Source of the DNA: an uncultured Planctomycetia bacterium
Lineage (GTDB): Bacteria; Omnitrophota; Gorgyraeia; Tantalellales; Tantalellaceae
Direction: 5' to 3'
DNA length: 64,000 nt
Assembly: GCA_964451815.1 (NCBI GenBank)
Contig: CAYVIW010000076.1
Span: 6,210 to 70,209, forward strand
In this document: positions 6,271-62,656 of the stretch, one piece after another
Numbering within the stretch: position 1 is the first letter of the stretch
How the letters are laid out: each line of letters starts with the position of its first letter
Position numbers and translations under genes: made by a program
The notes under the pieces: generated by a model
What the model was told of the DNA's origin: nothing
The model's input: only the letters and a program-made list of their open reading frames with translations
Databases searched by the model: none

Positions 6271-7524
6271 TCAGCCTTTTCCTGCCCGCTTTTTTCCGCT
6301 TTTCTTGCCGAGATCAAATGCTTTATGCACAGCGTTAACGGCTTTACTGGCAACCTTATCCTCTATTACACATGATATCTTGATCTCACTGGTAGAGATC
6401 ATCTCTATGTTGATCTTTTTGGAAGCGAGTGCCTTGAACATCCTGGCCGCTACACCTGAATGACTACGCATGCCTATTCCGACGACCGAAAGCTTGGCCA
6501 CTTTCCTGTTTACCTTAACCCCCTTAGCACCTATGCGACGGGCTATCGCTCTAACAACTTCCTCGGTCTTGACAAGGTCCTTTTTAGGCACGGTGAAAGA
6601 TATATCCGTGGCTCCGGTCCTTGAGATGTTCTGTACTATCATGTCTACATTTATATCGGCGCCCGCGAGATTCTCGAACAGCCTACTGGCCTCACCGGGC
6701 TTATCGGGAACATCGCACACGGTAATCTTGGCTTCGTCCTTGTTCACGGCGACTCCTCTCACCAGAACATCCTCCATACCCCTGACCTCCTTTGTGATGA
6801 CCGTCCCTTCTTCTCTGGAAATACTCGACCTTACATGCATTGGTACATTGAATTTGCTCGCTACTTCCATGCTTCTGGCCTGCATCACCTGCGCTCCTAA
6901 AGAGGCAAGCTCGAGCATCTCATCATAACTTATGGTCTGCAATTTTCGCGCTTCCTTGACAATACGCGGATCAGCCGTGTAAACGCCTTTTACGTCGGTA
7001 TATATCTCGCACAGCCCGGCTTTAAGTACCTTTGCCAGGGCCACCGCGGTCATATCAGAACCTCCCCGCCCAAGAGTGGTTATATCCTGGTCAAGATTGA
7101 CCCCCTGGAACCCGGCGACTATTACCACCTTGCCGGCATCAAGCTGCCGGCGTATTTTGCCGGTAGATATTTCTACTATCCTGGCTTTTGTATGGGAGGA
7201 ATCGGTCTTTATTCCGACCTGCGCGCCGGTAAGAGATATCGCCCCGACACCCAACCCGTTGAGCGCCATCGCCAGAAGGGCCACCGACATCTGTTCTCCC
7301 GTGGAAAGAAGCATGTCCAGTTCTCTTGCCGGGGGGTCCTTGCTTATTTTCATAGCCAGGTCCATAAGCTCGTCCGTAGTATCCCCCAGAGCCGAGACCA
7401 CCACCACAAGTTCATAGCCTTTTTTTCTGGTTTCAGCCACCCTGCGGGCAACACCCATTATGCGCCCGGTGTCAGCTACGCTGCTTCCGCCATATTTCTG
7501 GACTATTATACCTTTTTTCTTCAT
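6271..7524 (-). CDS. lysC: Aspartate kinase.
   Basis: KYGGSSV nucleotide-binding motif, amino-acid kinase fold and two C-terminal ACT domains. I place the start at the MKKKG ATG ending at 7524. Confidence 0.9.
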   Translation of the reverse strand: MKKKGIIVQKYGGSSVADTGRIMGVARRVAETRKKGYELVVVVSALGDTTDELMDLAMKISKDPPARELDMLLSTGEQMSVALLAMALNGLGVGAISLTGAQVGIKTDSSHTKARIVEISTGKIRRQLDAGKVVIVAGFQGVNLDQDITTLGRGGSDMTAVALAKVLKAGLCEIYTDVKGVYTADPRIVKEARKLQTISYDEMLELASLGAQVMQARSMEVASKFNVPMHVRSSISREEGTVITKEVRGMEDVLVRGVAVNKDEAKITVCDVPDKPGEASRLFENLAGADINVDMIVQNISRTGATDISFTVPKKDLVKTEEVVRAIARRIGAKGVKVNRKVAKLSVVGIGMRSHSGVAARMFKALASKKINIEMISTSEIKISCVIEDKVASKAVNAVHKAFDLGKKSGKKRAGKG

Positions 7525-9862: not shown

Positions 9863-11164
9863 CTATCCTTCTATTCGTATTGCCGCGGTCTTAGCGGTCA
9901 CCCATTCCATAGCGTCTATTTCGGATATCGCTTTTCTCATATCGCCTTCTTTGACCTTATGGGTCATTATTACCACGGGTACTGTTTCTCCCTCGTTCCT
10001 TTCCTCCTGTGATACATTGGCTATACTGATGTTGTTGGTGGAAAGAACAGTAGATATACCCGCAAGTACCCCCGGCTTGTCTATTACAGAGAACCTCAGA
10101 TAATAAGCCAGGCTTATCTCTTCCATGCTCCGTATGCCATTGCCGGAAGAAGCGTAATTCATCCTGTACGGCAGGGGGTTGTCGCTGCCGGAATAAGCCA
10201 CATGCTCCGCTATCTCAACTATATCGCCTATGATCGAGCTTGCAGTAGGTTCTTTTCCCGCTCCCTTCCCAAAAAGAAGCGATTCTCCGATAAGATCGCC
10301 CCTAACGTATATTGCGTTATCAGCTCCGCGTACGTCAGAAAGAAGATGTGAAGATCTCAGAAGCGTCGGGTGCACTCTCAGCTCTATGCCTTTGTCGGAC
10401 TCTTTGGCGACACCCAGAAGCTTGACGCCGTATCCCCATTTTTTAGCGTTCGCTATATCCTGAGGCTCTATCGAGGAAATACCCTCGGTATGAACATCGC
10501 TGGCGTATACTTCCTGTCCGAAACACAGAAGCGCCAGTATCGCCAGTTTGTGGGCACTGTCAGCGCCGCTTATATCAAGCTCCGGATCTTTTTCGGCTAT
10601 CCCTTTCTCCTGGGCTATTTTTAACGCCTCGTCAAAAGAAAGCCCCTTTTCCTCCATCATGGTCAGGATAAAATTAGTGGTACCGTTAAGTATGCCATAG
10701 ACAGTGCTTATCCTGTTGGCCACAAAACTCTCTCTCAGCGTACGGATTATGGGTACAGCCCCGCAGACACTGGCCTCGAAGTTGACAAAAAGTCCCTTCT
10801 CCGACGCGGAACCGAATATCTCCTTCCAGCTTTCCGAAAGCAGGGCCTTATTTGCTGTAACAACATGCTTGCCGCTTTCAATAGCTTCGAGTATCATGCT
10901 CCTGGCGGGCTCTATGCCCCCCGCAAGCTCGACTATGATATCTATCCCGTCGTCAAGAATAAGATCTTTATAGGACATTGTCTTGACCGTTCCGTCGCCG
11001 GCACATGTCCTTTCTAAAGCGTTCTTATCCTTGTCGCACAGCGCCCTGATAACAAGCGAAACCCCGGTTCTCTCAGCTATAAGCGCCCCATTGCGGTTTA
11101 TGGACTCAACCACTCCGCTGCCGACGGTACCCAGGCCTATTATACCGATACTAACGCTCTTCAT
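9863..11164 (-). CDS. hom: Homoserine dehydrogenase.
   Basis: NAD-binding GLGTVGSGV, a catalytic domain and a C-terminal ACT domain. The start is trimmed to MKSVSIG because the extended ORF would run through the tRNA. Confidence 0.9.
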
Positions 11165-12402: not shown

Positions 12403-12488
12403 CTTGGGTAGGATCAAGTTGACAAGGACAGGTGTGGGATCAAAATCGGGACAGTTGTGGGACTAGCACAGGGACAGGTGTAGGATCA
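12403..12488. repeat. About 3.5 tandem copies of a 23-bp unit (GGACAG[G/T]TGT[G/A]GGA[T/C][C/T]A…), followed by an inverted partial copy at 12495-12506.
   Basis: Unit starts at 12426, 12449 and 12472 give a 23-bp period, with a partial unit at 12403-12416. The segment GAACCGTCCCTG at 12495-12506 is the reverse complement of the start of a unit. Confidence 0.6.
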
Positions 12489-12506
12489 TTTTCAGAACCG
12501 TCCCTG

Positions 12507-19580: not shown

Positions 19581-20243
19581 TTATCGTTTGTCTTGCTGCC
19601 GCGCCCCGCGAAGAGCGTTTATCGCTTCGGTATAGTCTTTCTCGCCAAAGACCGCTGTGCCCGCCACAAGAACATCAGCTCCCGCGTCCAGAACCCCACC
19701 AGCCGTCTTAGCGCTTATACCCCCATCTACCTGGATATGCCCTTTGAATTTCTTCCTTAACATCTCTATTTTGGGTATAATATGCGCCATAAATGACTGC
19801 CCACCGAAACCGGGTTCAACAGTCATCACAAGCACCATGTCTACCTGGTCCAGGACAGCCTCGAGCGCCGAAATATCCGTACCGGGTTTTATCGATACAC
19901 CTGCTTTTTTACCTCTGGTCTTTATTCTTTTTATTGTCTCAAGCGGCCTGTCACAGGCCTCGATATGAAATGTGATCATATCGCCACCGGCTATAGCAAA
20001 GCTATCGATATAACGCAAAGGATCGGTTATCATAAGATGCACGTCCACAAAAAGAGAGGTCACCGGCCGTATGGCCCTGACCACAAGAGGCCCTATTGTT
20101 ATATTGGGGACAAAAACACCGTCCATTACGTCCACATGGACCCAATCGGCCCCGGCCTTTTCCACCGCTTTTATTTCCTCTCCCAAACAACTGAAATCAG
20201 CGGACAATATACTCGGGGCGATAAGGACCTTATTTCCTCTCAT
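19581..20243 (-). CDS. rpe: Ribulose-phosphate 3-epimerase.
   Basis: Starts MRGNKVLIAPSILSADF…HVDVMDG; start trimmed to that methionine. Confidence 0.9.
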   Translation of the reverse strand: MRGNKVLIAPSILSADFSCLGEEIKAVEKAGADWVHVDVMDGVFVPNITIGPLVVRAIRPVTSLFVDVHLMITDPLRYIDSFAIAGGDMITFHIEACDRPLETIKRIKTRGKKAGVSIKPGTDISALEAVLDQVDMVLVMTVEPGFGGQSFMAHIIPKIEMLRKKFKGHIQVDGGISAKTAGGVLDAGADVLVAGTAVFGEKDYTEAINALRGARQQDKR

Positions 20244-40546: not shown

Positions 40547-40559
40547 AGGGGATGCCCGC

Positions 40560-40602
40560 TTAACCTGGTTAGATCAACCTGCTCGGTCTAACCGGGTTGA
40601 TC
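40560..40602. repeat. Degenerate copy of the palindromic element TTAACCTGGTTA[A/G]ATCAACC… that also occurs at 53053.
   Basis: 20 of its first 21 nt are identical to 53053-53073, and the remainder is a diverged AACC(A/G)GGTT(A/G)A arm. It lies in the 80-bp gap between the smc stop and the pncC start. Confidence 0.55.
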
Positions 40603-40625
40603 TTATGATCCGTTTAAAAAAGGGA

Positions 40626-43600
40626 CTATACGGCCGCGCCTACGGTCGCTTTTTCTTTTATCTCGTTCTCTTCGGCGAACTTAACGGAAACCATTTTGGA
40701 CACGCCCTTCTCTTCCATGGTTATACCGTAAAGTACGTCCGCGAGTTGTATGGTCATTCTGTTATGCGTAATTATTACGAACTGGGAAAGCTTCAGAAAT
40801 TCCTGGAGCACGCGGCAGAACCTAACAACATTGGACTCGTCAAGCGGAGCGTCGATCTCGTCCAGCACGCAAAAGGGGCTGGGGTTCACCTTGAATATGG
40901 CGAATATAAGGGCTATAGCCGTCATCGCCTTTTCGCCTCCGGAAAGCTGCATTATGTTGTGAAGTTTTTTGCCGGGAGGGCGCACTACTATATCTATGCC
41001 GCACTCGAGAACGTTGTTCTCGTCTTCAAGGACAAGATCGGCCTTGCCCCCGTTGAAAAGCATGCGGAAATAATCGTTGAACTCTTTCTTGATAGCCTCG
41101 AACGATTCCATGAACTTCTTCTTTGTGGTCCTGTTTATTTTCTGTATGGCCTGCATAAGCTGCTCTCTGGCCGATTCCAGGTCTTCCCGCTGTTTTGAAA
41201 GGAACCCGAACCTCTCTTCTAACTGTTTATGTTCTTCCATCGCCCCCAGGCTCACGTCGCCCATGCGCTCCAGCTGTTCCTTTATGTCCTTTATCTGGGA
41301 TAAAACACCGTCCCAGTCGGCCCCGGGATCTATCTCGACCTCTACGGACGATATGTCGACCTTGTAAGAATCCATCATCTTTTCGACGATCGAAGCCCTC
41401 TTGAACTCTATCTCTTTCTTCATTATGTCAACATCCCGCGCTTTGTCCCTGGCTGATTCCAGCTCCTGCTCGCATGATCTCAACTCTTCCTGCGCGCGGT
41501 TTATCCGAACAGCGAGGGCATCTTTTCTCTCTTTCTTCTCGAATATCTCCGCATTACGCTCCTCGAGAGCGGAGTTCAACTCCACATTATGTCCTTCCAG
41601 ACAAACCGTCTCTTCTTCAAGGTCTCTTATCCTCTGGCCGCTTTCGTTGATCCGCGCTCTCCTTTCTTCCACATCGCTGTCCACCCTCTGGAAAGACCTT
41701 CTTTCTCTTTCGAGATTGTCCGCGAGGTTCTCCTCTTCTTTTCTCATGGCGGAAAGTTCGGCCTTAAGGTCCGACATGCAGAAAAGCGTCTCTTCTCTCC
41801 TTACGGAATTTTCTCTTATCTCCTCCTGGGCCCTGTCTATAGATTCCTGGAGCTCTCTCTGCCGTTTTTCTACCTCCACAAAGGTCTGTTCATACCTTTC
41901 CTTATCCTCGTTGAGCTGGCGAAGTACGTCCCGTTCCTCCTCTATCTCGGCCTCAAGGATAAGTACCTCTTCGTTTATGGAATCCATCTTTTCTTTGACC
42001 GACGATTTTCTGGAAGATACCTCCGCCAGCCGCATCTCCCTTTCTCTAAGCTCCGCCTCGAGACGTTCCTTTTTAGATAACGATGCCTTGAACCACTCTT
42101 CGAGCTGATCTATCGATACCGTCAGTTCTCTTACAGCCTCTTCCACTGAACTCTCTTCCTGTTTCATCTGCTCGAGTTTTTCGCGCCTTCCGAAAAGAGG
42201 GATCGTCTCCTTGGACGAAAAATTCCTGCTTCTGAAAATACCTTTCTGATACACTTCACCACGCTCTCCTATTATCCTGCCCCCGAAAGAAGGCTGGCTG
42301 TCAAGAAAAGAACGCGCGGTCTCGAAGGAGACCGTGACAAGGATATCGCTGAAAAACTCTCTGATGGCTGTATCATAAGGCTCCCGCGCCGTTATTACCT
42401 CGGATATGCCGCCGAGCGGGCTGTTGCCGCTGACAACGGGCGAATCTCCCCCGGAAAGGAATTTTTGTATATCGCCGAGTATTATAAGGTTTACGCTTTC
42501 CATGGCGTTTTCGGCCAGATACCCTATAACCCTGTCGGCGGTGTCCCGGCTGTCCACAACAAGAGCGTGAGACGCGTCTCCCAGTACTGATTTAACTGAC
42601 TCCTCATAACTCTCACGTACGTTTATGATCTCCGAAAGTATCCCCTTGACCCCGGAAAACCGGGGGTCTCCGGACTCAGCCCTTTTCATTATATCCTTTA
42701 CGCTTTCTCCCATGCCTTCCCGCTCGGATATAAGTTTCTCTAGAAACTCCCGGCGTGGTTTTATGCGGTTCAGATGCTTTTCCTTCTCAGCTCTGTCGGA
42801 AACAAGCAGAGCCTGCCTCTGTTGTCTTGCGACATACTCATCGCTGAAAACCCTGTATTCATCTTTTTTCTCCCCAAACCCGGCCGTGGCCAGAACCAGT
42901 TCCTCTTCTATCCCGCGCATCTTTTCGGCGACGTTATCCTTCTCGGCCTGGACATTGTTCCTCTCAAGTTTTAGACGCCTTTCTCTGGAAAGAGCGTTCT
43001 GTATATCCGCGCCGTTCTTTATCAAGGCGTTCTTGGTCCGGGTCTCTTCAGATACTATGTCCACTATCTTTTCCCTGTTCATTTTGAGCTCATGCCTGTG
43101 CGTCTCAAGACTTGAAGTAACGGCCTTTATGTTGTCTTCGGCCGCGGACAGCGCCTCTTCTTTGTTCTGACGCCTTCCCGAAACATCCCGGAACCTCTCT
43201 TCCAGTTCATCAAGACGCGTTTTCATGCTGTCTTTCCGCTCGGTGGCCTGCTCTATCTCCCAGTCGAACCTCTCCACCTGCTTGCGGAGCTCTTCAACCC
43301 TTTCTCTGTTAACCTCTATTGTGTGCCTGTTCTTATCTATATCGGTAGAAAGCCTCATTACCTCGTTCTGTGAATTGTTGAGGTCTTCCGAGAGAGAATT
43401 GAACTCACCCCGGGCATTAAGAAGCATCGCCGACATCTCCTCTACTTTTCGTGCCAGTTCTTCCGAGGTTTCCCTTATCTGCCTGTTCTTGTCTACGAGC
43501 GAAGTATCATCGGTGCTTAGCTCTCTGTATTTTTTTACAGACAGCTTTACCTCGAGCGTTTTGAGCTGCTCAAAACGTGCTTTGTACCTTTCCGCTTTTC

Positions 43601-44239: not shown

Positions 44240-44446
44240 CTATTTTCCGGCCTGTGAATTGCCTTCTATTATGCTTTTAAGATGCTCTATCTCTTCTTCA
44301 GTATATTCCCTGTAGCTGTTTATCGGATTGCGCCGAGGCTCAGGGAAGATGCCTTTCTTTTCATAGTTTATTACCGTACCCCGGTATATCCCGAGTATAT
44401 CGGCAACTTCCTGAACAGTATATTTTCTTGTTCCGTTAGCTATCAT
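44240..44446 (-). CDS. Small MerR-family helix-turn-helix DNA-binding protein.
   Basis: 68 aa; the segment YTVQEVADILGIYRGTVINYEKKGIFPEP…YTEEEIEHLKSI matches the MerR HTH pattern. It ends 11 nt before smc. Confidence 0.6.
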   Translation of the reverse strand: MIANGTRKYTVQEVADILGIYRGTVINYEKKGIFPEPRRNPINSYREYTEEEIEHLKSIIEGNSQAGK

Positions 44447-44833
44447 GATCCGGATTATAGTTTGATGACCTTTGTATATGTTTGAATGCCTTTGATTAAG
44501 TTTGTTAGAGTATATATGGCTTTGGTGTTCTTGTCAAGGTCTTAAGAAAAAAATATCACCGCTTTGGGATCCTCGCTAAGATCACTAAGACTAAAATCCT
44601 CTAATATAAGGGTATTCGGGTAAACAGCGGTATATTTTCGAGAGGCACCGTGAAGAGAGCAAGCATGGTCCCGCCCTGCGATATTATGACAATGGCGGGT
44701 TGCGGGCGGAACGTTGAGGACGATTTCCTCGCAAAATCGTACATCCCCTCGAGAATATACTGCTGTTTACCCTTGTTCTTTAGATAAGTAGTAAAATACC
44801 AAGGGACACTCATGGATCAAAGGGATAGTATCG

Positions 44834-48136: not shown

Positions 48137-48235
48137 TTGGGTCTCCTTGTTTTTTCCTGAACCTGGTCCGCTCAAGGCGTTCAGCTTAAAATATTCGTTT
48201 TCCCGCGAGAAAGTCCGAAGCGTTTAAAGGGCAAA

Positions 48236-52860: not shown

Positions 52861-52921
52861 TTTTTCACTCCTTTTTTAGTTTTGACCTTGACATAAACAC
52901 TGCCTTTGATAGAATGTATCT

Positions 52922-53006
52922 ATCAATAAAAACGCGGGTCCGACTCCGGATCCTTCGCGTTACAAGGCGGGTGAATATCCCCTACCATCACCCGCCTTTG
53001 ATTTTA
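52922..53006 (+). ncRNA. Candidate small RNA, predicted from an orphan promoter and terminator with no ORF between them.
   Basis: On the plus strand, TTGACA (52888-52893), a 16-nt spacer, then TGATAGAAT (extended -10, 52907-52915). About 85 nt downstream is an 11-bp perfect stem (52964-52974 pairing with 52988-52998) followed by a T-tract. Confidence 0.3.
52964..53006 (+). terminator. Strong plus-strand intrinsic terminator: AAGGCGGGTGA, a 13-nt loop, TCACCCGCCTT, then TTTGATTTT.
   Basis: The 11-bp GC-rich perfect stem and U-tract are read directly from the sequence. Confidence 0.55.
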
Positions 53007-53052
53007 ATCATTTTTTAATTTTTTGTCAATATTTTTTTCATCTTTCATCAAG

Positions 53053-53093
53053 TTAACCTGGTTAAATCAACCAGGTTAAAATAACCAGGTTAA
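53053..53093. promoter_or_regulatory. Operator-like repeat array: an 11-bp perfect inverted repeat (TTAACCTGGTT, AAATC, AACCAGGTTAA) followed by a third direct AACCAGGTTAA copy at 14-bp phasing.
   Basis: Lies immediately upstream of the bgl -35 hexamer. The individual arms are themselves near-palindromic. Confidence 0.55.
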
Positions 53094-53104
53094 GATTGGG
53101 CGCT

Positions 53105-53132
53105 TGATAGTCCGCATAACTAAGTGTATAAT
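53105..53132 (+). promoter_or_regulatory. Promoter candidate (TTGATA, 16 nt, TATAAT) for the beta-glucosidase, implying a leaderless transcript.
   Basis: The -10 ends 6 nt before the ATG at 53139, and there is no room for a Shine-Dalgarno sequence. Confidence 0.45.
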
Positions 53133-53138
53133 CGTGTT

Positions 53139-54413
53139 ATGGGTGCTAATTCTGACAGGTTTCCAGGCGGGTTTTTATGGGGAGCGTCTACTTCGGCTTA
53201 CCAGGTGGAGGGCGGGAACACTTACTGCGACTGGTACGAGTGGGAGGCGGCCGGGAACTCCCAGATGTGCGGCGAGGCCTGCGGCCATTACCGCCTTTAC
53301 CCTGAAGACTTCGCCATGGCGAAAGAACTGGGCCACAATGCCCACCGCCTTGGTCTCGAATGGAGCCGGCTTGAAAAGACCGAAGGCGTGTGGGACAGCG
53401 CCGAATGGGACCATTACAAAAAGGCGCTGGATAAGCTTCTTGAATTCGGGATAGAACCTTTTCTGACCCTCAACCACTTTACTATGCCGCTCTGGCTGTC
53501 AAAAAAGGGAAGCTGGCTGAGCGATGAGTCGCCCTTTTTTTTCGCGCGTTTCGCCGAGAAGGCGTCACGCGAACTGGGCAGCCGCGTAAAATACTGGATA
53601 ACCATCAACGAACCCAACATACTTGCCACTCTCGCCTACTTCTGGGGGCAGTGGCCGCCCTGCCACAAGGATTTCAGCGAAACTCAAACCGTCCTCATTA
53701 ACATGCTGAAAGGCCATGCCCTGTCATACGCGGCTATAAAAGGATCCTCATCCGAAGGCGTAAAGCCTCTTGTGGGTGTGGCGAAAGCCGTGACAGCGTT
53801 CCACCCCTGCCGCCGTTCATCTCTTCAGGACCGTCTGGCGGCACATCGGAGAGACCGTTTCCATAACCATAGTTTCATATCGTCACTTCTCAGCGGACGC
53901 GTGGAACTGGCCGGAAGGAAAGAAAAACTGCCCGGCGCGGGAACGCTTGACTTTATCGGTCTCAATTACTATTTCAGGCAGTTCATACGCAATGACCGGC
54001 CTTTTTCTAAAGACCCCTTCGGCGAGGTTTGTTCCACCAGCCACCATCCGGGCTCGGGCGCAATAACCGATATGGGCTGGGAAATATATCCCCGCGGGCT
54101 CTATGAAGTAGTGAAAAGTTTCAGCAGATACCGCCTGCCTCTTTTTGTGACAGAGAACGGCATAGCCACAAGAGATGACGACACCAGAAAAGATTATATA
54201 AAAAACCATCTTCTAGCGCTTCTTAAAGCCATCAGCGAGGGCTCTCCAGTTAAAGGATATCTCCACTGGTCTCTTCTTGATAACTTTGAGTGGGATTCGG
54301 GATACAGCAAAAAGTTCGGGCTTGTAGAGGTGGACTTCGACACACAGAAACGAACTATCCGCGACTCGGCAAGATACTACAGCCAGGTTATCCGATCGGG
54401 AGAGGTGTTATAG
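53139..54413 (+). CDS. Glycoside hydrolase family 1 beta-glucosidase.
   Basis: GH1 signatures: FLWGASTSAYQVEG, the acid/base catalytic motif ITINEP and the nucleophile motif VTENG. There is no signal peptide. This is the only plus-strand gene in the window. Confidence 0.9.
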   Translation: MGANSDRFPGGFLWGASTSAYQVEGGNTYCDWYEWEAAGNSQMCGEACGHYRLYPEDFAMAKELGHNAHRLGLEWSRLEKTEGVWDSAEWDHYKKALDKLLEFGIEPFLTLNHFTMPLWLSKKGSWLSDESPFFFARFAEKASRELGSRVKYWITINEPNILATLAYFWGQWPPCHKDFSETQTVLINMLKGHALSYAAIKGSSSEGVKPLVGVAKAVTAFHPCRRSSLQDRLAAHRRDRFHNHSFISSLLSGRVELAGRKEKLPGAGTLDFIGLNYYFRQFIRNDRPFSKDPFGEVCSTSHHPGSGAITDMGWEIYPRGLYEVVKSFSRYRLPLFVTENGIATRDDDTRKDYIKNHLLALLKAISEGSPVKGYLHWSLLDNFEWDSGYSKKFGLVEVDFDTQKRTIRDSARYYSQVIRSGEVL

Positions 54414-55747: not shown

Positions 55748-58700
55748 TTACAGCGAGGTATAGACCGCTTCCATGGCGCTTATGTAGTCCCGTATCTCCT
55801 CGTAGTTTATAAGTGTTATCCTTACAACTAAAGCCCCGGTAAAAAGTTTTGCCAGAAGCTCAGCCGGATTTTCTCTATATTGCGAAACTACCCCCATATC
55901 CAGATAACCGGCTCTTCCGAAATGTTCTATCATCTCACTAGCAAGATAACGCATGAACGGATCGTCCTGTTCCATTCCGAAATGAACCTTCAACCTTGTG
56001 TAGTTAAGAGACTGGGTAGCAAAGTGAAGGAGCCTTGGAATATTCTCAAAATGGCTTGCCGAACCCTCGTTCTGGCTAAAAGACACTTTTATCCGAGACT
56101 TAAAATCTCTGAATTTTTCCGTGTCCAGTAGACTGTTAACTTGGTCCCTTGTTGCCTCATTAACACAGTTTATAAGCGCCGCAGGAAACTGCTTTTCGCT
56201 CTTTAACATCTCATCTATAACACGTTCAAGCATTTTCTCGACCAGTTTTCCGTCAAACGAATGATAAGAAGTGTTGATGCCTTCTCTTGTGTACTTACGC
56301 GACATTTTTCGACCGTATCTCTCGGTGGTACTTTCGGAATAATAGTTGTCATTCTCATTACAGACGATATTGCGCACTCCTTTCCTCACGTTGTCTTGCA
56401 TGAACCTTATTTCTGTAGTAAGGGCCAAGTTGCCAGCTGGATCCATGTGGTCCTGGAGGCCATACAGAAATATACTTGGCCCTATCCGCCCGGCAATGTT
56501 AAAATCAATTTTCTGGTCTCTGATCTTTTCGAAATTATGTTTTATCAGGTTTTCTTCATCTCTTGTAAGTTCGCGTAGCTCTATTTCCTTCTGCGTTTTA
56601 TTAAGTTCGTTGATAAACCCTTCATCCCCTATATTCAAGGCTCTGTCAAAGTCCATAACTCCTCTCTCTATCATGACCTCAAGCCCTATCCTGGGCTCCT
56701 CGCCTACACCTTTGGCAACTGTATGGGCGTTTATCCCGCTCACAGCAAGCCCAGGCGAACCATGTATCATCTCATGCGCCAGCGCCATAGCGTGGGCCTT
56801 CGCTTTGGGGCTTTTCATACCTAAAAGCTCCTGATTAAGATATATAACCCGTTCACCCTCGATGACCCCGAAGTGACCCATGACCCTTTCATCCATGGCT
56901 ATGGCCTTTACAGTTATTTTCTTGTCTGTTATTTCCTGGATGATCTTAAGTATCTCTTTTCTTTCGTCTTCGGTCAGAGTACTCGGAATACCGTCCTTCG
57001 GCTTCATAAGATCTTCCAAAGTCTCGGCCAAACCACTTAGGTCGGGGCTTTCAGGTGTTATACGCACCTTCACCTCGGTACTTACCTCTGCCCCTGGATC
57101 CTTGTGCGACACCACAAGAAAACCGTTTTCCTCTCTTGTGGTAAATCCTTCTGTTTTAAGTTGTCCATCCGACCCCATGAACTTTCCGATATTGCCGGCA
57201 ACTGGGGCTAAATCCGACGCGGCAGGGGACAACAACCTCTCATATTCTTTTCTTTCTAATCTCCCGGGCTTCTCAAAAACCTTAATGTATTTTGGTTCAA
57301 ATATCCAGTCTTCTCCATGATCCGCCAACAATCTCTTGAAATAATTTGCCTTTTGCATTGTTTCGATCAGTTGGTCCGCATGGGCCTCTTTATCCTCGAC
57401 TGTGGCCATGGTGTCCAACCCTGGCAATAAGTATGCACCCATTTCCAACCAAGTGAAAACAGTGCTCCACTCCCCCGGGGCCTTCATTTCCAATAACCCT
57501 GCTTGACCAGTGACGAATCTCCCTTTTTCTTCGGAAAGCTTCTTGTCGGAAAGCTCCTGGTCCAGCCTGTAATGCTCATTAAAAAGACGCATCAACTCTT
57601 CTCTCTGCTCATCTGGAACCTCCAACATATTTGTCGCAAAATGACCTTGTCCACTTAAAAGCACATGCAAAATAAGCTGACCAGTGTCCCTCACATCTAG
57701 CGCTTCTTCCACTCCCCCCTTTTCTACATAATTTTTTGCAAATCGGGCTGCTTTTGGCAGATCCATCTTCTGCTGCTCATGCTGCTGTAGAAATAAACTT
57801 ATATTATCGTGTGCTAGGAGTCCACCTTCTGCAGCTAAAGCCGGATTGATAAAATTGTCAGCGATACTATTCCACATATGACGCGGGTAAACTCCCTCTT
57901 GAGCCAACAGCTGGTAAAACATAGACCAGTCTCTAACTATAAGGCGTTTCTTTCCCTCTGCCTTCTTTTCCTCTGCCTTCTTTTCCTCTGCCAAAATGTG
58001 TTCCCTTAGATAATAAGCCTTCCGGAAAAGGTTATCTATGATCGTGAGCACTTGTTCCTCAGTCGCCTCTTCTCCCTGGGATATTAACTGAGCTACTATA
58101 TCGCCCGCTATATTACCTGCGAGATGGTCAGTTGCCATTTTTTTTATGACTTCTTCAACCCAACCGCCTTCGAATCCGGCCGTCAGAACTACCGCATTTA
58201 TGAGTTCAGGTGTTATTGGGTTTTCGGACGACAAGATCTCATCTATGTCTTCAACACTAGTAGCGCCTATAAATGCTGGTAACAAGCGTTTCTCGAAAGT
58301 ACCGAACAAAAGATCTATCTGTTGCTCAAAGGACAATTCCCCGTGATACCCGTTGTAAAGTAAATACATAAAGAGCTGGCTTACACTGTCTGGTCTTAAG
58401 TCCTCTTTCGGCTTTAACAATTGCTCCATATTGCCGGCATCGATCGGGTCGGACTCCAAAAGATTCAGCAAGTATTCGCTGTCTTCATCGCCTATCATGA
58501 TCCTGCCCGATTCCAACTCTACTGCAATAGCATTAATATATGCCGTCACCTTCTCGACATCTTCCAAACTGCCTATCCTCTCTCCGACCTTTTCCCTTAA
58601 TTGCCCCATGGCTTCTTTGTCTGCGAACCAGCCCCCCAGATAACTCCATGCTTCTTCAAGGTTTCTGCTTTTCAGTTTCTCGATCGTCTCATTTACCGAT

Positions 58701-61700
58701 TTCCTATTAAGTCCAAGTTCCCTAAAATCTGGACCCTCTGCAATATTTTTTAGTTCTTCTAACCACGAATTGATCCGTGTTTCTCCGGCTTCACCTACAA
58801 ACGCCGAATTAAGGTCATTGACCATCTCGGCGGTTACTTCTGGCTCTTCAACTTCTAACAGGTCTCTTAATTTTTTATTCCTCTGGACCTCGTTCATGTT
58901 TTCGCCCTCAGTTAAGGCAATGTACATCGCCCAAATAGCTATCTTACTATTTTTATCCAGACCCGAGATAAGAGCATCTGCCGTGCCCTGTCCAAGAAAT
59001 TTTCTGAACTCAACATTAGCTTTTGCAGAATCCCTTATGATGTCTTTTTCCGGGTCCTCATCAAGAAGAAGCGAAACAAACTTACCCAGGTCACTCAGAA
59101 AAGTATCGTCGCTGTCAGCGGGCGTTTCACCCTTGGAGAGATCTTTTACAGCATTCTTTACTCTGTTATGGTGATCTCCTTCATATTTCTTATCTTCGAG
59201 ATGTTCGCGGAGAGATTTTCCATATGCGATATCGAATATCGTGGTTGCCAGACCGTACAGATCTGTTTTTTGCCCATATATACGGCTCTCTGTAGCTTCT
59301 CTTGGCAACCTTCCCGGTGTCCCCTTCGTTGCCGCCATTTCTACTCCTTTGCCTTCGGGATCATAGAGAGCTATGCCGAAATCCCCCAGTTTAATTTTAG
59401 GGTTTCCCGCATCATCAAGCGTTACAAAAATATTATCAGGCTTGATATCCGCGTGTATAACCCCCTTCTCATGCAAAGATCGAACTATCTGAACAAGCTG
59501 GTGTATTATCTGCTCTTTTTGTCTGGGGTTGAGCTCTCGCCCCTGGGTTTTTAGTTCATCGAGAAAAGACCGAAGGGACTTACCCCCGTGTTCCATAACC
59601 AGATAATCATGCTTTCTGCCATCTGCTCCCTCAAAACTGCCTGACTCAATGATGCCTATTGTGCCTCTATTCCCTGAAAGATACCTCATCACCAATACTT
59701 CTCTTATCCTAGAGACATTGTTCATTAAAAAGTTATTCCCTGTCCCGGCAGGATCGACTACTGTAGCATCGGAATCATAATAATGCTGACGATCGAAGAT
59801 CTTGACCGCTACTTCTTTTTTTTCGTCTCCGATCTTAGCCCCATAAACGGACGCGAACCCGCCTTTGCCCAGAAACCTGTTTTGAAAACGGAACGGATTA
59901 CGGTAAAAATTAAAATCGATTTTATTCCCGGAATACCCCATTATCCATTTCCAGTTTTTAGGTATTTGGGATACTTCAAGGGTTAATTCAGAGCCGATCC
60001 TGGGAGGACTGTCTGACTGCTGGTTTATCAACACGTCTGATAAAACCTGTCCGATCTCCCGATCAGGGAAAAAACCTGTTTCGGAAGATTTTTCGGTTAC
60101 CTCCGGAAAAACTATGGCGCTGAGCAGCTCAAGTTCTGCCTGAAGTTGCTCGTTTGTCATTCTGGTTAGATCCCTGCTGAAAACAATACGGAAAAGGTCC
60201 TCCCATTGTTGAGGCGTAAGCTCGGGTGTTTTAGAGCTAATAACCTTTTTGAGCCATGGGGCCTTCTTCGCGATCGCTTCATCAAGCGTGAGATCTAACG
60301 GGTCCACCGGGGTCTCCACTGCCGGACGCCTAGCCAGATAATCTCTCCGGGCGGTCCGCCTCTCCTCATCGGTCATGGACCAGACAGGTTTGTCCAGAAG
60401 ATCCGGGACCCGGGAAAGATCAACTTCTGTCTCTCCTCTTAAAAAGGCCTCTTCCACTCTCTCCGCGAAAAAATGATCGCCGTATATGCCGGCTATTATT
60501 TCGTGCAGGATCACCGCATCACGCTCATCACCTGTAAGATCGGCATTGATCCTTATTCCTCTCCCACCTGCATGTCCGCGGAAAGAAATGCCCTCTACCG
60601 TCCTCGCCAGGCTTTCACCTTGGCTGTTTTTCCCCACTGCCAGTATATCTATTTCGTCGGCTACAGCACCTAACCCAGCTTCACCAAGCCAATTTTTGAG
60701 CTTCGCCATAATTCCCTCAATATCACCTATGTCATTGAAAGCCCCTTCCGGCAGTTTTTCCATCTCAGCGTCCACATACTGCTGATGTACGGCGTCCATG
60801 AGAGCTCTTCTTGATACCACAACAGGAGAGTCCTCCATGCCCTTTATTTTGACAGAAAGCTCAGTATCGCTTACATCTATGCCGGCTATCCCCGCCTGTA
60901 AAGCTTCAAGTCCCCGTTCCTTTAGTATGAAACTCCGAAGCACGACCGATGTTCTCCAATTATCAAGACCTTCGGCGCCCCAGACATCCTCTCCAAGATT
61001 ATTGAGCATGCTGGCTATCTGCATCATGGAGCTCTGTGCCAGGGCCGAGCTCAACATCTGCTGAATGTCTGCGGTCTGGCCGGCCAAAAGGTCAAAATAC
61101 GGGTTCACATAATCCTTCTCCATGGTGAACTTGGGCATTATGGATACATAAGAATAACCCTGTTCTTCGAAAAGCGCGCAGAGGTTCTCGGTATGGAACC
61201 CTCCTGTCATTATTATTGCCGCTTCCCCTCCCGCCGGGACCTCCGAAAAAAGCATGTTCTCCACAAAAGCCTCATCACGTGCGAACGAATACTCATAGAA
61301 CATCATTATCTCGGCAAGATAATTATCGAGCCGAGAAATCCCCGGGGAGGGTCGTGCGGTAATGCCGTATCTGGGACCTTCTCTCGCGATAAATTTCAGG
61401 AAACGTTCAGCACTAAAAGAATCTTTGTTAGATTTGTAATAGGCAAAATCATTCTTGGTAAGCATTATCTTGAATATATTGTCTGTTAACGCCAGGTTCC
61501 TTGAAAGGATGTCCAGCTCCCTCTCCGTATCGCTGCGGAACAAAGGCTCCTTAACTGCTCTTTCGAGATCATCGAGTTCCTCCATGACCTTGAACCGGTC
61601 CACCGCGTCAAAAAGCGAAACATAAACTATGTAACCCGAAAGGGCCGGATAACCCGAAATATCAAAGCCGCATTCCCGCGCCTTTCCTAGGAGATAGTTA

Positions 61701-62656
61701 TAGAACTCTTTCAGCGATATGCGCTTTGTCTTGAACTTCACCGTAGTTGAGACAAGCTCTCTCATCTCCGCCGATGAGAGGATGGACTTCATGCGGTCAA
61801 TAAGAACGGTCCTCTCGGCATTGGCCTTTCGGAAATCAACGCTATCTTCCTTCTCCATGGCCTGAGCTATCAGGTAGATATTCGGGAAGGTCTTAACCGA
61901 AATACCCCTTTCCCTGGCGTTCTTTATCATAAAAGACAGGTATTCCCTGAACTCCATGTTGCCGGCCTTGTAAGAGCTGTAAGCCATGTCCATTTTCAGA
62001 AGGTCCGGTGTAAATATGTGACGTTTGAGATTATTAAAGATATGGCGCAGCTCCTTAAGGTACCCTTCTACCTCTTCCTTATAACGCAAAGAGTCGCGGT
62101 ACACCGCCAGGTTTTTCAGGTAAAGCTCTCTGTCCTCTATGCCCCATAGAGACACCCTGTCGAGGTTGTTTATGGCGTAGAACTCGGCTCCGTTAACCTC
62201 GCCCCTTTTCAGGAAATACTCTGCCACCTCGCGCCGTATCTCACCGCCCGAGATATTAGTGAAAACCGTAAGATCGTACTCCCCGGCTCCGCCTTCGAGG
62301 TTCAGCATGCTAATGCCATATTCCTTGTTTAGATAATCTATTACTCCGGATACCTTCTGCTGCGCGAAATAGTTACAATGCGCGTCCTGGATATGTATAA
62401 CGGTTCTCGCGGCATCACCCCTTTGGGAATACCTGACCTCTCCGAGATGCGCGGGCATGGTAAAGGTCTCAACATCCAGCGAGGCGTACCCTCCTGGGGA
62501 ATGAAGATCTTCCAGATCAACGTCAAACATAGCGTCCGACGCACCGAGCATAGCCTCCGAATCAAGAGTCAGACAGGAGATAAAGAAAACCGCGGAGACC
62601 GCGATCGCCGTCATCCTCATAAATATCCCTGTCTTTTTTCCGAAGATCATCTTCAT
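55748..62656 (-). CDS. Giant predicted secreted multidomain protein of 2302 aa. It combines an N-terminal signal peptide, a TraB/GumN/Tiki-like domain, a eukaryotic-like Ser/Thr protein kinase domain, a long alpha-helical region, an HExxH (HEMIH) zincin-like motif and an unassigned C-terminal domain.
   Basis: A GGAG ribosome-binding site precedes the ATG at 62656, and the N-terminus is a hydrophobic signal sequence. TraB-like motifs include IIMTGGFH…GY. The kinase region (about 59100-59900) has the Gly-rich loop LGKGGFASVYG, the VAVK lysine, HADIKPDN and GDFG. ALAHEMIHG lies at about 56762-56790. Confidence 0.7.
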   Translation of the reverse strand: MKMIFGKKTGIFMRMTAIAVSAVFFISCLTLDSEAMLGASDAMFDVDLEDLHSPGGYASLDVETFTMPAHLGEVRYSQRGDAARTVIHIQDAHCNYFAQQKVSGVIDYLNKEYGISMLNLEGGAGEYDLTVFTNISGGEIRREVAEYFLKRGEVNGAEFYAINNLDRVSLWGIEDRELYLKNLAVYRDSLRYKEEVEGYLKELRHIFNNLKRHIFTPDLLKMDMAYSSYKAGNMEFREYLSFMIKNARERGISVKTFPNIYLIAQAMEKEDSVDFRKANAERTVLIDRMKSILSSAEMRELVSTTVKFKTKRISLKEFYNYLLGKARECGFDISGYPALSGYIVYVSLFDAVDRFKVMEELDDLERAVKEPLFRSDTERELDILSRNLALTDNIFKIMLTKNDFAYYKSNKDSFSAERFLKFIAREGPRYGITARPSPGISRLDNYLAEIMMFYEYSFARDEAFVENMLFSEVPAGGEAAIIMTGGFHTENLCALFEEQGYSYVSIMPKFTMEKDYVNPYFDLLAGQTADIQQMLSSALAQSSMMQIASMLNNLGEDVWGAEGLDNWRTSVVLRSFILKERGLEALQAGIAGIDVSDTELSVKIKGMEDSPVVVSRRALMDAVHQQYVDAEMEKLPEGAFNDIGDIEGIMAKLKNWLGEAGLGAVADEIDILAVGKNSQGESLARTVEGISFRGHAGGRGIRINADLTGDERDAVILHEIIAGIYGDHFFAERVEEAFLRGETEVDLSRVPDLLDKPVWSMTDEERRTARRDYLARRPAVETPVDPLDLTLDEAIAKKAPWLKKVISSKTPELTPQQWEDLFRIVFSRDLTRMTNEQLQAELELLSAIVFPEVTEKSSETGFFPDREIGQVLSDVLINQQSDSPPRIGSELTLEVSQIPKNWKWIMGYSGNKIDFNFYRNPFRFQNRFLGKGGFASVYGAKIGDEKKEVAVKIFDRQHYYDSDATVVDPAGTGNNFLMNNVSRIREVLVMRYLSGNRGTIGIIESGSFEGADGRKHDYLVMEHGGKSLRSFLDELKTQGRELNPRQKEQIIHQLVQIVRSLHEKGVIHADIKPDNIFVTLDDAGNPKIKLGDFGIALYDPEGKGVEMAATKGTPGRLPREATESRIYGQKTDLYGLATTIFDIAYGKSLREHLEDKKYEGDHHNRVKNAVKDLSKGETPADSDDTFLSDLGKFVSLLLDEDPEKDIIRDSAKANVEFRKFLGQGTADALISGLDKNSKIAIWAMYIALTEGENMNEVQRNKKLRDLLEVEEPEVTAEMVNDLNSAFVGEAGETRINSWLEELKNIAEGPDFRELGLNRKSVNETIEKLKSRNLEEAWSYLGGWFADKEAMGQLREKVGERIGSLEDVEKVTAYINAIAVELESGRIMIGDEDSEYLLNLLESDPIDAGNMEQLLKPKEDLRPDSVSQLFMYLLYNGYHGELSFEQQIDLLFGTFEKRLLPAFIGATSVEDIDEILSSENPITPELINAVVLTAGFEGGWVEEVIKKMATDHLAGNIAGDIVAQLISQGEEATEEQVLTIIDNLFRKAYYLREHILAEEKKAEEKKAEGKKRLIVRDWSMFYQLLAQEGVYPRHMWNSIADNFINPALAAEGGLLAHDNISLFLQQHEQQKMDLPKAARFAKNYVEKGGVEEALDVRDTGQLILHVLLSGQGHFATNMLEVPDEQREELMRLFNEHYRLDQELSDKKLSEEKGRFVTGQAGLLEMKAPGEWSTVFTWLEMGAYLLPGLDTMATVEDKEAHADQLIETMQKANYFKRLLADHGEDWIFEPKYIKVFEKPGRLERKEYERLLSPAASDLAPVAGNIGKFMGSDGQLKTEGFTTREENGFLVVSHKDPGAEVSTEVKVRITPESPDLSGLAETLEDLMKPKDGIPSTLTEDERKEILKIIQEITDKKITVKAIAMDERVMGHFGVIEGERVIYLNQELLGMKSPKAKAHAMALAHEMIHGSPGLAVSGINAHTVAKGVGEEPRIGLEVMIERGVMDFDRALNIGDEGFINELNKTQKEIELRELTRDEENLIKHNFEKIRDQKIDFNIAGRIGPSIFLYGLQDHMDPAGNLALTTEIRFMQDNVRKGVRNIVCNENDNYYSESTTERYGRKMSRKYTREGINTSYHSFDGKLVEKMLERVIDEMLKSEKQFPAALINCVNEATRDQVNSLLDTEKFRDFKSRIKVSFSQNEGSASHFENIPRLLHFATQSLNYTRLKVHFGMEQDDPFMRYLASEMIEHFGRAGYLDMGVVSQYRENPAELLAKLFTGALVVRITLINYEEIRDYISAMEAVYTSL

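Follow-up and report, generated by a model that had tools for sequence, protein, structure and literature searches.

Why does a region upstream of cinA and a region upstream of a beta-glucosidase gene, in the genome of an uncultured member of Candidatus Omnitrophota, carry closely similar palindromic DNA? Both sites lie in a stretch of 64,000 nucleotides of contig CAYVIW010000076.1 (the window). One element, copy A, occupies the spacer between smc and cinA/pncC, and the other, copy B, lies in a divergent gap before a gene (bgl) encoding a GH1 beta-glucosidase. An earlier sequence-only reading had considered two explanations: an operator shared by a small regulon, or a family of repeats akin to repetitive extragenic palindromic elements (REPs) or miniature inverted-repeat transposable elements (MITEs). 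We find that the two sites are very probably copies of a single REP family tied to a REP-associated tyrosine transposase (RAYT), and that their likeness stems from this common membership rather than from a regulator shared by cinA and bgl.

Each copy spans approximately 62-65 bp and has a core of three palindromic units of the form (T)TAACCWGGTTA(A) that are spaced by 14 bp; as a double-stranded motif, the unit of the family can be written as TTAACCWGGTTAA. An asymmetric left arm gives the element its polarity. The sequence from 40560 reads TTAACCTGGTTAGATCAACCTGCTCGGTCTAACCGGGTTGATC, with cores AACCTGGTT, AACCTGCTC (degenerate), and AACCGGGTT starting at 40562, 40576, and 40590, while the sequence from 53053 reads TTAACCTGGTTAAATCAACCAGGTTAAAATAACCAGGTTAAG, with cores AACCTGGTT, AACCAGGTT, and AACCAGGTT starting at 53055, 53069, and 53083. 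A repeat finder paired both sites over 39 nt in direct orientation (77% identity) and over 63 nt in inverted orientation (71%), the latter indicating that the element is longer than had been stated earlier. The sequence-only reading had correctly recognized a dispersed palindrome at two intergenic sites and had correctly read the beginnings of its two 21-mers (TTAACCTGGTTAG... at 40560 and TTAACCTGGTTAA... at 53053). Its extent of about 45 bp was too short (Table 1), however, and the 21-mers, described as one base apart, differ at two positions (13 and 21). It had also swapped the neighboring genes, as the copy at 40560 is the one that adjoins cinA/pncC, and the copy at 53053 adjoins the bgl promoter.

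Six exact matches to AACCWGGTT were counted in the window, where 0.26 would be expected, and none of 100 shuffles reached six. A third, weaker site (AACCTGGTC) had been proposed near 48160. It belongs to a set of 26 single units with one mismatch, where 10.5 are expected, and is unsupported because it has neither a second unit nor a profile match. Single AACCNGGTT units were further seen in coding regions at 19808, 37624, and 51452, within a ribulose-phosphate epimerase gene, alaS, and an open reading frame (ORF) of 520 aa, respectively. Having no neighboring units or profile support, these are probably chance occurrences.

The connection to a transposase was found on contig MLSed_10001421 (locus L140), where the repeat AAAAATTTGAT(C/T)TTTTATCAAATCAACCTGGTTAA(ATC/TTT)AACCAGGTTGATTTAACCAGGTTGAA borders the gene for the RAYT P0059 on either side. 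When aligned, this repeat proved to be the window element, including its left arm. A profile built from these two flanking copies detected copy B with an E-value of 5e-12 on the plus strand and copy A with an E-value of 6e-8 on the minus strand, and nothing else below E = 1 in the 64-kb window. The best-preserved form of the element is the one found at the RAYT gene: a short left-arm hairpin is followed by a 41-nt palindrome, TCAACCTGGTTAAATCAACC-A-GGTTGATTTAACCAGGTTGA (20+1+20), made of three self-palindromic units at 14-nt spacing. As single-stranded DNA, this copy is predicted to fold with a free energy of -22.7 kcal/mol (z -9.2), while the two hairpins of the window are less pronounced (z -2.6 to -3.8). 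Over the 41-nt core, copy B is identical to the RAYT-flanking copy at 36/41 positions, and the 23-mer AACCTGGTTAAATCAACCAGGTT is common to both without a mismatch; copy A is identical to it at 34/41. Copies A and B agree with each other at only 32/41 positions, below the match of either to the RAYT-flanking copy, which gives a star-like pattern. P0059 and the cinA of the window were found in the same four JGI samples, on 9 contigs each, and the GC contents are similar (0.50 and 0.49). From this co-occurrence, the similar G+C content, and the shared repeat, we infer that the RAYT contig belongs to the genome of the window.

A similar arrangement was seen at locus L076, where an ORF of 188 aa encoding a Y1/IS200-like transposase is bracketed by elements. 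Here, one repeat lies 18 nt upstream of the gene, and another runs into its 3' end, with a unit starting 8 nt past the stop codon. All named members of the homologue family of this transposase are from Omnitrophota. Three of the transposases, P0059, P0001, and P0055, scored 91.4, 83.8, and 83.2 bits, respectively, with the NCBIfam model NF047646 ("REP-associated tyrosine transposase," cut-off 80), and fell under the cut-off of the IS200 model. The closest solved relative of the family profile is TnpA-REP of Escherichia coli (PDB 4ER8, 1e-9), with which the HUH and Tyr motifs align; the motifs SHVHL and RYIDLNP are both present.

In total, AACCWGGTT-type units flank four RAYT loci (L076, L123/L140, L127, and L141), and a fifth, L142, is flanked mainly by the variant unit TAATCAGATTA; all five are in Candidatus Omnitrophota. 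At L142 (positions 9900-10700), the unit has changed to TAATCAGATTA or TAACCTGATTA, and one canonical unit is left downstream. Of all RAYTs in the family, the protein encoded there has diverged most (48-53% identity), and the joint change suggests co-evolution of protein and repeat. The gene order spoVG-UPF0102-Mg_chelatase(ComM-like)-RAYT was found at four loci with gene tables (L123/L140, L127, L141, and L142). As this synteny is kept in four lineages at 48-65% identity, it fits a vertically inherited, single-copy RAYT by published criteria (PMC5581495, PMC6006769). We therefore take the RAYT to be present in a single copy per genome, and it probably acts on the repeats of the AACCWGGTT type.

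To see how the repeat is distributed elsewhere, one genome per species (185,579 species) was scanned for two adjacent units (AACCWGGTT-N5-AACCWGGTT). The pattern was found in at least 113 stretches. Among the matches listed, 24 were from Candidatus Omnitrophota, 13 of them from one metagenome-assembled genome (MAG), JBDRIH01. The other listed matches comprised terminator hairpins (Pelosinus, Saccharibacteria), G+C-rich hairpins of Gaiellaceae/Thermoleophilia, and arrays with a 14-nt period in Polyangia and Acidobacteriota. A scan of metagenomes for the trimer gave 3 loci, none from the organism of the window, of which the collection evidently holds no samples. One of the trimers (T-A-A; L131 3194-3321), on an unrelated metagenome contig, lies between two divergent promoter-like sites in a layout like that of copy B. 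The organism of the window occurs in JGI sediment metagenomes, and its proteins, which match Omnitrophota loci best, support its placement in that phylum: its FabG gene is 78% identical to that of JBDRIH01, and the named homologues of the GH1 enzyme and of the RAYT are all from Omnitrophota, as are most of those of CinA.

The sampled part of JBDRIH01 contains at least 21 copies of the 31-nt core ATCTAACCAGGTTAGTTTAACCTGGTTAGAT, which forms a 14-bp stem with a 3-nt loop. Within this core, 26 positions are invariant and 4 more are at least 90% conserved. The sequences flanking it vary, yet they stay complementary and so lengthen the stem: eight stem pairs were changed on both sides, and none of 500 shuffles reached the observed covariation or pairing. 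The single-stranded hairpin has a predicted free energy of -25.7 (z -12). Alignment of the 21 copies revealed no direct target duplications; instead of forming direct repeats, the flanking sequences complement each other.

The positions of the elements relative to genes were analyzed in 306 kb of Omnitrophota DNA, using a crude ORF call with 90% coding density. Nearly all clusters of elements (39/41) fell outside the called ORFs, 36 of them in scored gaps and 3 at the ends of loci. These gaps were co-directional, divergent, and convergent in 27, 4, and 5 cases, compared to 157, 22, and 22 in the background. Such background proportions are the behavior of a dispersed repeat, rather than of an operator bound to promoters. 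The repeat-family alternative of the sequence-only reading is therefore upheld: the copies are homologous to repeats that flank a RAYT gene and that, in related genomes, occur in multiple copies, form hairpins, and lie between genes with no preference for a type of gap.

Table 1. Positions of the two REP copies, their units, and the neighboring promoter-like sites (window coordinates unless stated).
Feature	Position	Strand	Basis or remark
REP copy A, whole element	40557..40621	-	nhmmer and profile from RAYT-flanking copies
Copy A intact palindromic unit TTAACCTGGTTAG, closest unit to cinA	40560..40572		sequence
Copy A middle unit, degenerate (TCAACCTGCTCGG)	40574..40586		sequence; register from alignment
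Copy A third unit (CTAACCGGGTTGA)	40588..40600		sequence
REP copy B, whole element: left arm (53033-53052), then three units	53033..53095	+	nhmmer, 62.9 bits
Copy B unit 1, TTAACCTGGTTAA, perfect palindrome	53053..53065		sequence
Copy B unit 2, TCAACCAGGTTAA	53067..53079		sequence
Copy B unit 3, ATAACCAGGTTAA	53081..53093		sequence
Promoter-like TTGACA-17-TAAAAT, leftward to 520-aa gene	53001..53029	-	-35 box abuts left end of copy B
Promoter-like TTGATA-17-TATAAT, GH1 beta-glucosidase (ATG 53139)	53104..53132	+	starts 9 nt right of copy B
Divergent intergenic region, conserved	52861-53138 (window); 2224-2500 (L143); 2231-2500 (L144)

Copy A is embedded in a minus-strand series of genes in the order smc, a gene with a CinA/PncC domain, thpR/ligT, recA, and alaS. 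It fills 65 of the 79 nt from the smc stop codon (40626-40628) to the ATG of cinA/pncC (40546, minus strand), and the copy at 40560 lies 4 nt past the former and 13 nt upstream of the latter. Its polarity is that of smc and cinA, as it scored 64.3 bits on the minus strand and 23.9 bits on the plus strand with nhmmer. The element sits where the ribosome-binding site of cinA would be, and the 13-nt spacer, GCGGGCATCCCCT, contains no visible Shine-Dalgarno sequence, bearing out what the sequence-only reading had remarked. A terminator scan and a promoter search predicted neither kind of signal in the smc-cinA spacer, and its predicted RNA fold is unremarkable (z -1.2). Of the seven core positions at which copy A departs from the RAYT-flanking copy, six are transitions, which is consistent with decay. 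Copy A is probably a passive element that is decaying by point mutation, with no dedicated function.

The same junction was compared in three relatives. A relative with 85% CinA identity carries the element at the same place between smc and cinA in a better preserved form, and its short-read contigs end inside the element. In a relative with 66% CinA identity, the element is absent, and the smc-cinA spacer consists of 21 nt with an AAGGA ribosome-binding site; this genome has the repeat family around its own RAYT. The element is absent as well from a relative with 73% CinA identity (L136 199-496), in which an unrelated insert of 298 nt fills the smc-cinA gap. Within the insert lie a segment that appears structured, a distinct terminator hairpin, and, directly ahead of cinA, a TATAAT promoter. 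The absence of copy A from the junction in two relatives indicates a lineage-specific insertion.

Copy B has had a different history. Its gap of 278 nt separates the gene for a 520-aa protein of unknown family, on the minus strand, from the divergently oriented gene for the GH1 beta-glucosidase. The promoter-like sites on either side of the copy are near-consensus and are kept in three species. This entire intergenic region is 90% identical in a species whose GH1 enzyme is 79% identical, and 80-83% identical in a species whose GH1 enzyme is 75% identical, while the genes on either side agree at only 54-68% and 36-50% of their third codon positions, respectively. The divergent region as a whole is therefore much more constrained than the surrounding coding DNA. 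Within copy B, the three units are invariant across the species, and only the second linker varies (L143, L144). A near-invariant element among nearly saturated synonymous sites points to an old copy under purifying selection. The conservation of copy B might stem partly from constraint on the whole regulatory region. Judged from this pattern of conservation, copy B may have been co-opted (exapted).

Several further features of these intergenic regions were observed. The beta-glucosidase gene looks leaderless: its TATAAT box ends at 53132 and its ATG starts at 53139, so that a Shine-Dalgarno sequence would not fit (53127-53141). On the plus strand of 52888-53010, a near-consensus promoter with a TG extension (TTGACA-16-TAGAAT) is followed by two conserved hairpins, with a T-rich tract after the second. 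G-U pairs favor the plus strand, and the segment is conserved in L143 and L144. It is a candidate small RNA or leader of approximately 85 nt, antisense to the 5' untranslated region of the 520-aa gene, and gave no match in Rfam. In a 68% relative, other palindromes are found at the corresponding places, TACCCGGT..TACCGGGTA and GTACCCGGTAC. The bgl intergenic region of a relative (L145 2350-2450) holds a second type of palindromic repeat (AAAGTGTCCCC ... GGGGACACTTT), and another relative has a similar repeat between smc and cinA (L136, about 420-480).

These observations allow the alternatives to be weighed against one another. The units could bind a single dimeric transcription factor, which would control the cinA-recA, beta-glucosidase, and transposase genes together. 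Each unit is indeed a palindrome of 13 bp, copy B is placed between the -35 boxes of two divergent promoters (the L131 trimer likewise lying between divergent promoter-like sites), and its units are invariant in three species whose third codon positions are 36-68% identical, with the linker alone varying. We nevertheless consider a shared operator improbable as the origin of the likeness. Conservation at orthologous promoters holds for just one of the window sites, that of bgl; two relatives lack the cinA copy at the corresponding junction, and in the window itself the middle unit of this copy is destroyed. Elements are also found downstream of the RAYT gene and in five convergent gaps, which hold no promoter. 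Furthermore, the copies of JBDRIH01 (at least 21) are near-identical over 31 nt, unlike a degenerate operator, and their flanks co-vary to keep the hairpin. No regulator gene was found linked to the elements. Outward promoter-like sites did occur within 40 nt of elements 10 times, compared to 0.9 expected from whole-genome density, but three orthologous loci account for six of the ten, and promoters are denser in intergenic DNA than this baseline allows for. With orthologues counted once, the number is not clearly above the intergenic expectation, and we make no claim of enrichment. A regulatory role for the bgl copy alone is possible.

An even less probable explanation places the function at the RNA level, with the hairpins acting as transcript terminators, attenuators, processing barriers, or stabilizers of mRNA between genes. 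Stable hairpins are predicted, most copies lie between co-directional genes, where they often fill short spacers, and copy A lies within what is probably a co-transcript of smc and cinA. No T-run follows the hairpins, however, and the terminator scan was empty at both copies, which does not fit an intrinsic terminator; copy B is upstream of both -35 boxes and so is probably not transcribed from these promoters, and the smc-cinA spacer lacks a remarkable RNA fold, as noted above. In JBDRIH01, both loop orientations occur beside genes of either direction, and an RNA-level function would leave the association with a transposase gene unexplained. The least credible alternatives, which we regard as very improbable, are a chance likeness and a MITE that descends from an insertion sequence of the classical DDE kind. 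Taken by itself, a 20-mer with one mismatch in 64 kb is weakly significant (E estimated at about 0.2); the excess of exact units and the E-values of the independent profile speak against chance. As to a DDE element, the only transposase found beside the repeats, with no systematic search for insertion sequences made, is a Y1/HUH RAYT, and the aligned JBDRIH01 copies show no apparent target duplications.

Other candidates were tried and rejected. A LexA/SOS box was dismissed, as neither the 66% nor the 73% relative has the motif at smc-cinA-thpR-recA. The tandem architecture, copy number, and link to a transposase tell against parS or another chromosome-organization site beside smc. Integron attC sites, whose R''/R' boxes the ATCTAAC...GTTAGAT sequence resembles, do not fit the housekeeping neighbors, the lack of an integrase, and the hairpins, which are too short. 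No evidence was found for a DNA-uptake sequence, and effects of a Dcm/EcoRII-type CCWGG specificity are not apparent, since CCWGG is not avoided (182 observed, 198 expected). Viral contigs gave 0 matches to the two-unit pattern, contrary to a phage origin. With regard to known RNA families, only a tRNA was detected at the gathering threshold, and nothing significant was found around either region at a relaxed threshold. Searching the literature for the motif string returned only chance matches in unrelated sequences.

The preferred reading, a REP family tied to a RAYT, can be compared to known systems. In the REP/RAYT system (REPtron) of E. coli and Pseudomonas (PMC3333891, PMC3479197, PMC5581495), as here, hairpin-forming extragenic palindromes occur in any arrangement of genes, and copies directly flank a Y1/HUH transposase that is vertically inherited and single-copy (inferred in our case) and that passes the curated RAYT model. 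The two are also alike in that units cluster in tandem, as in bacterial interspersed mosaic elements (BIMEs), and in that copies are present or absent at orthologous sites. They differ in that the Omnitrophota element is built from self-palindromic units of 9-13 nt with a strict 14-nt period and has no GT[AG]G guide, and in that the host belongs to an uncultured phylum with small genomes, with a copy number that seems low in the organism of the window. REPINs (PMC3116915) resemble the element in that inverted pairs of units fold as one long hairpin, thought to be the unit mobilized by the RAYT, and in that they form vertically inherited populations. The hairpin described here is only 31-41 nt long, however, with a 3-nt loop and arms that are each palindromic, whereas REPINs consist of two REPs with a longer spacer. 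Operators of dimeric helix-turn-helix proteins, including the LexA/SOS boxes upstream of recA operons, also consist of palindromic units near promoters or start codons, and one copy does lie upstream of cinA-thpR-recA. Unlike such operators, the site is not kept at the recA operon of the relatives, and the elements are multi-copy, near-identical, extended into hairpins, and found outside promoter regions as well. In the literature searched, we found no mention of a RAYT or REPIN together with Omnitrophota.

Several observations weigh against the assignment to a RAYT-associated REP family. In the described REP superfamilies, a 5' GT[AG]G (or CGTC) tetranucleotide marks the hairpin foot (PMC3733652, PMC6006769), while GTAG, GTGG, CGTC, and their complements are absent from the consensus of both the window family and the JBDRIH01 family. 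The density of copies in the organism of the window is low, with 4 in the 84.6 kb sampled, 2 of which flank the RAYT gene. These two flanking copies share one polarity, although inverted flanking copies are often described. Finally, neutral sites are conserved far less than copy B, which is not what a purely selfish or neutral repeat predicts. Regarding the missing tetranucleotide, the HMMER alignment pairs IWQPRF of E. coli TnpA-REP with FWEDRF in the Omnitrophota proteins, placing Glu instead of Gln after the conserved Trp. In this alignment, the substitution falls in the region that has been linked to the recognition of GTAG (PMC6006769), which is only a hint.

By analogy to E. coli TnpA-REP (PMC3333891, PMC3479197), the HUH/Tyr transposase would recognize the hairpin of the palindrome in single-stranded DNA, and would cut and rejoin the DNA beside it. 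Over evolutionary time, this would have seeded copies into tolerant intergenic DNA. Copy A would be an insertion into the smc-cinA spacer in the lineage comprising the window and the relative with 85% CinA identity. Copy B would be an older insertion, which became fixed exactly between two divergent near-consensus promoters and may serve there as a protein-binding site or as a structure that responds to supercoiling.

Two more far-reaching readings, which we grade jointly and hold only tentatively, would extend this account. In one, copy B would be an exapted cis-regulatory module, acting either as a platform for proteins on double-stranded DNA or, in cruciform shape, as a sensor of the negative supercoiling that divergent transcription creates. 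In the other, the AACCWGGTT unit and the 14-nt period would define a cross-phylum class of RAYT/REP systems without the GT[AG]G guide, spanning Omnitrophota, a Polyangiaceae MAG, and loci of Acidobacteriota.

Beyond Omnitrophota, the following was seen at the loci returned by the two-unit scan. In the Polyangiaceae MAG JBNKBE01 (L109 5658-7967), a RAYT-like ORF on the minus strand (6314-7201) scored 62.6 bits with NF047646, below the cut-off. It is bordered by 12 AACCNGGTT core units on one side and 11 on the other; most of them read CTAACCAGGTTA(A/G)C, and some stand in tandem with a 14-nt period. This places the core by a RAYT-like gene in a second phylum. Three loci of Acidobacteriota (L010, L026, and L037) hold AACCWGGTT arrays with the same period. 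The Gaiellaceae MAG DASREW01 and other Thermoleophilia carry a separate G+C-rich hairpin family, GAACCTGGTTC-NNN-GAACCAGGTTC, at loci L018, L028, L032, L058, L071, L077, L086, and others, with 12 loci in one MAG; no transposase was found in those of its stretches that were examined.

Elsewhere in the window, an ORF of 68 aa (44240-44446, minus strand), which appears MerR-like by eye only, immediately precedes smc. The 387-nt gap upstream of it (44447-44833) contains a long imperfect hairpin with arms of 28 nt at 44618-44645 and 44745-44772, which are 89% complementary and 99 nt apart; the gap gave no match in Rfam, also with the threshold relaxed. At 12422-12501, intergenic DNA contains a 23-nt unit (ACAGGGACAGGTGTGGGATC...-like) in three tandem copies. 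On the minus strand, 55748-62656 encodes a protein of 2302 aa with a central Ser/Thr kinase domain; over its N-terminal 530 aa, this protein shares 36% identity with an ORF of an Omnitrophota MAG (L011).

The assignment of copies A and B to a REP-RAYT system overturns no current understanding; the unusual point is the conserved copy between divergent promoters. For annotation, it means that the likeness of the regions upstream of cinA and bgl should not be taken as a sign of co-regulation, and that assemblies of these genomes break at such repeats, as they do in the relative with 85% CinA identity. It adds an uncultured phylum with small genomes to the hosts of vertically inherited RAYT systems, and it brings to light an atypical REP architecture in which self-palindromic units recur strictly every 14 nt and the GT[AG]G tag is missing. 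Within a single window, members of this family have met contrasting fates: one is a decaying insertion, while the other is a copy under purifying selection at a promoter region.

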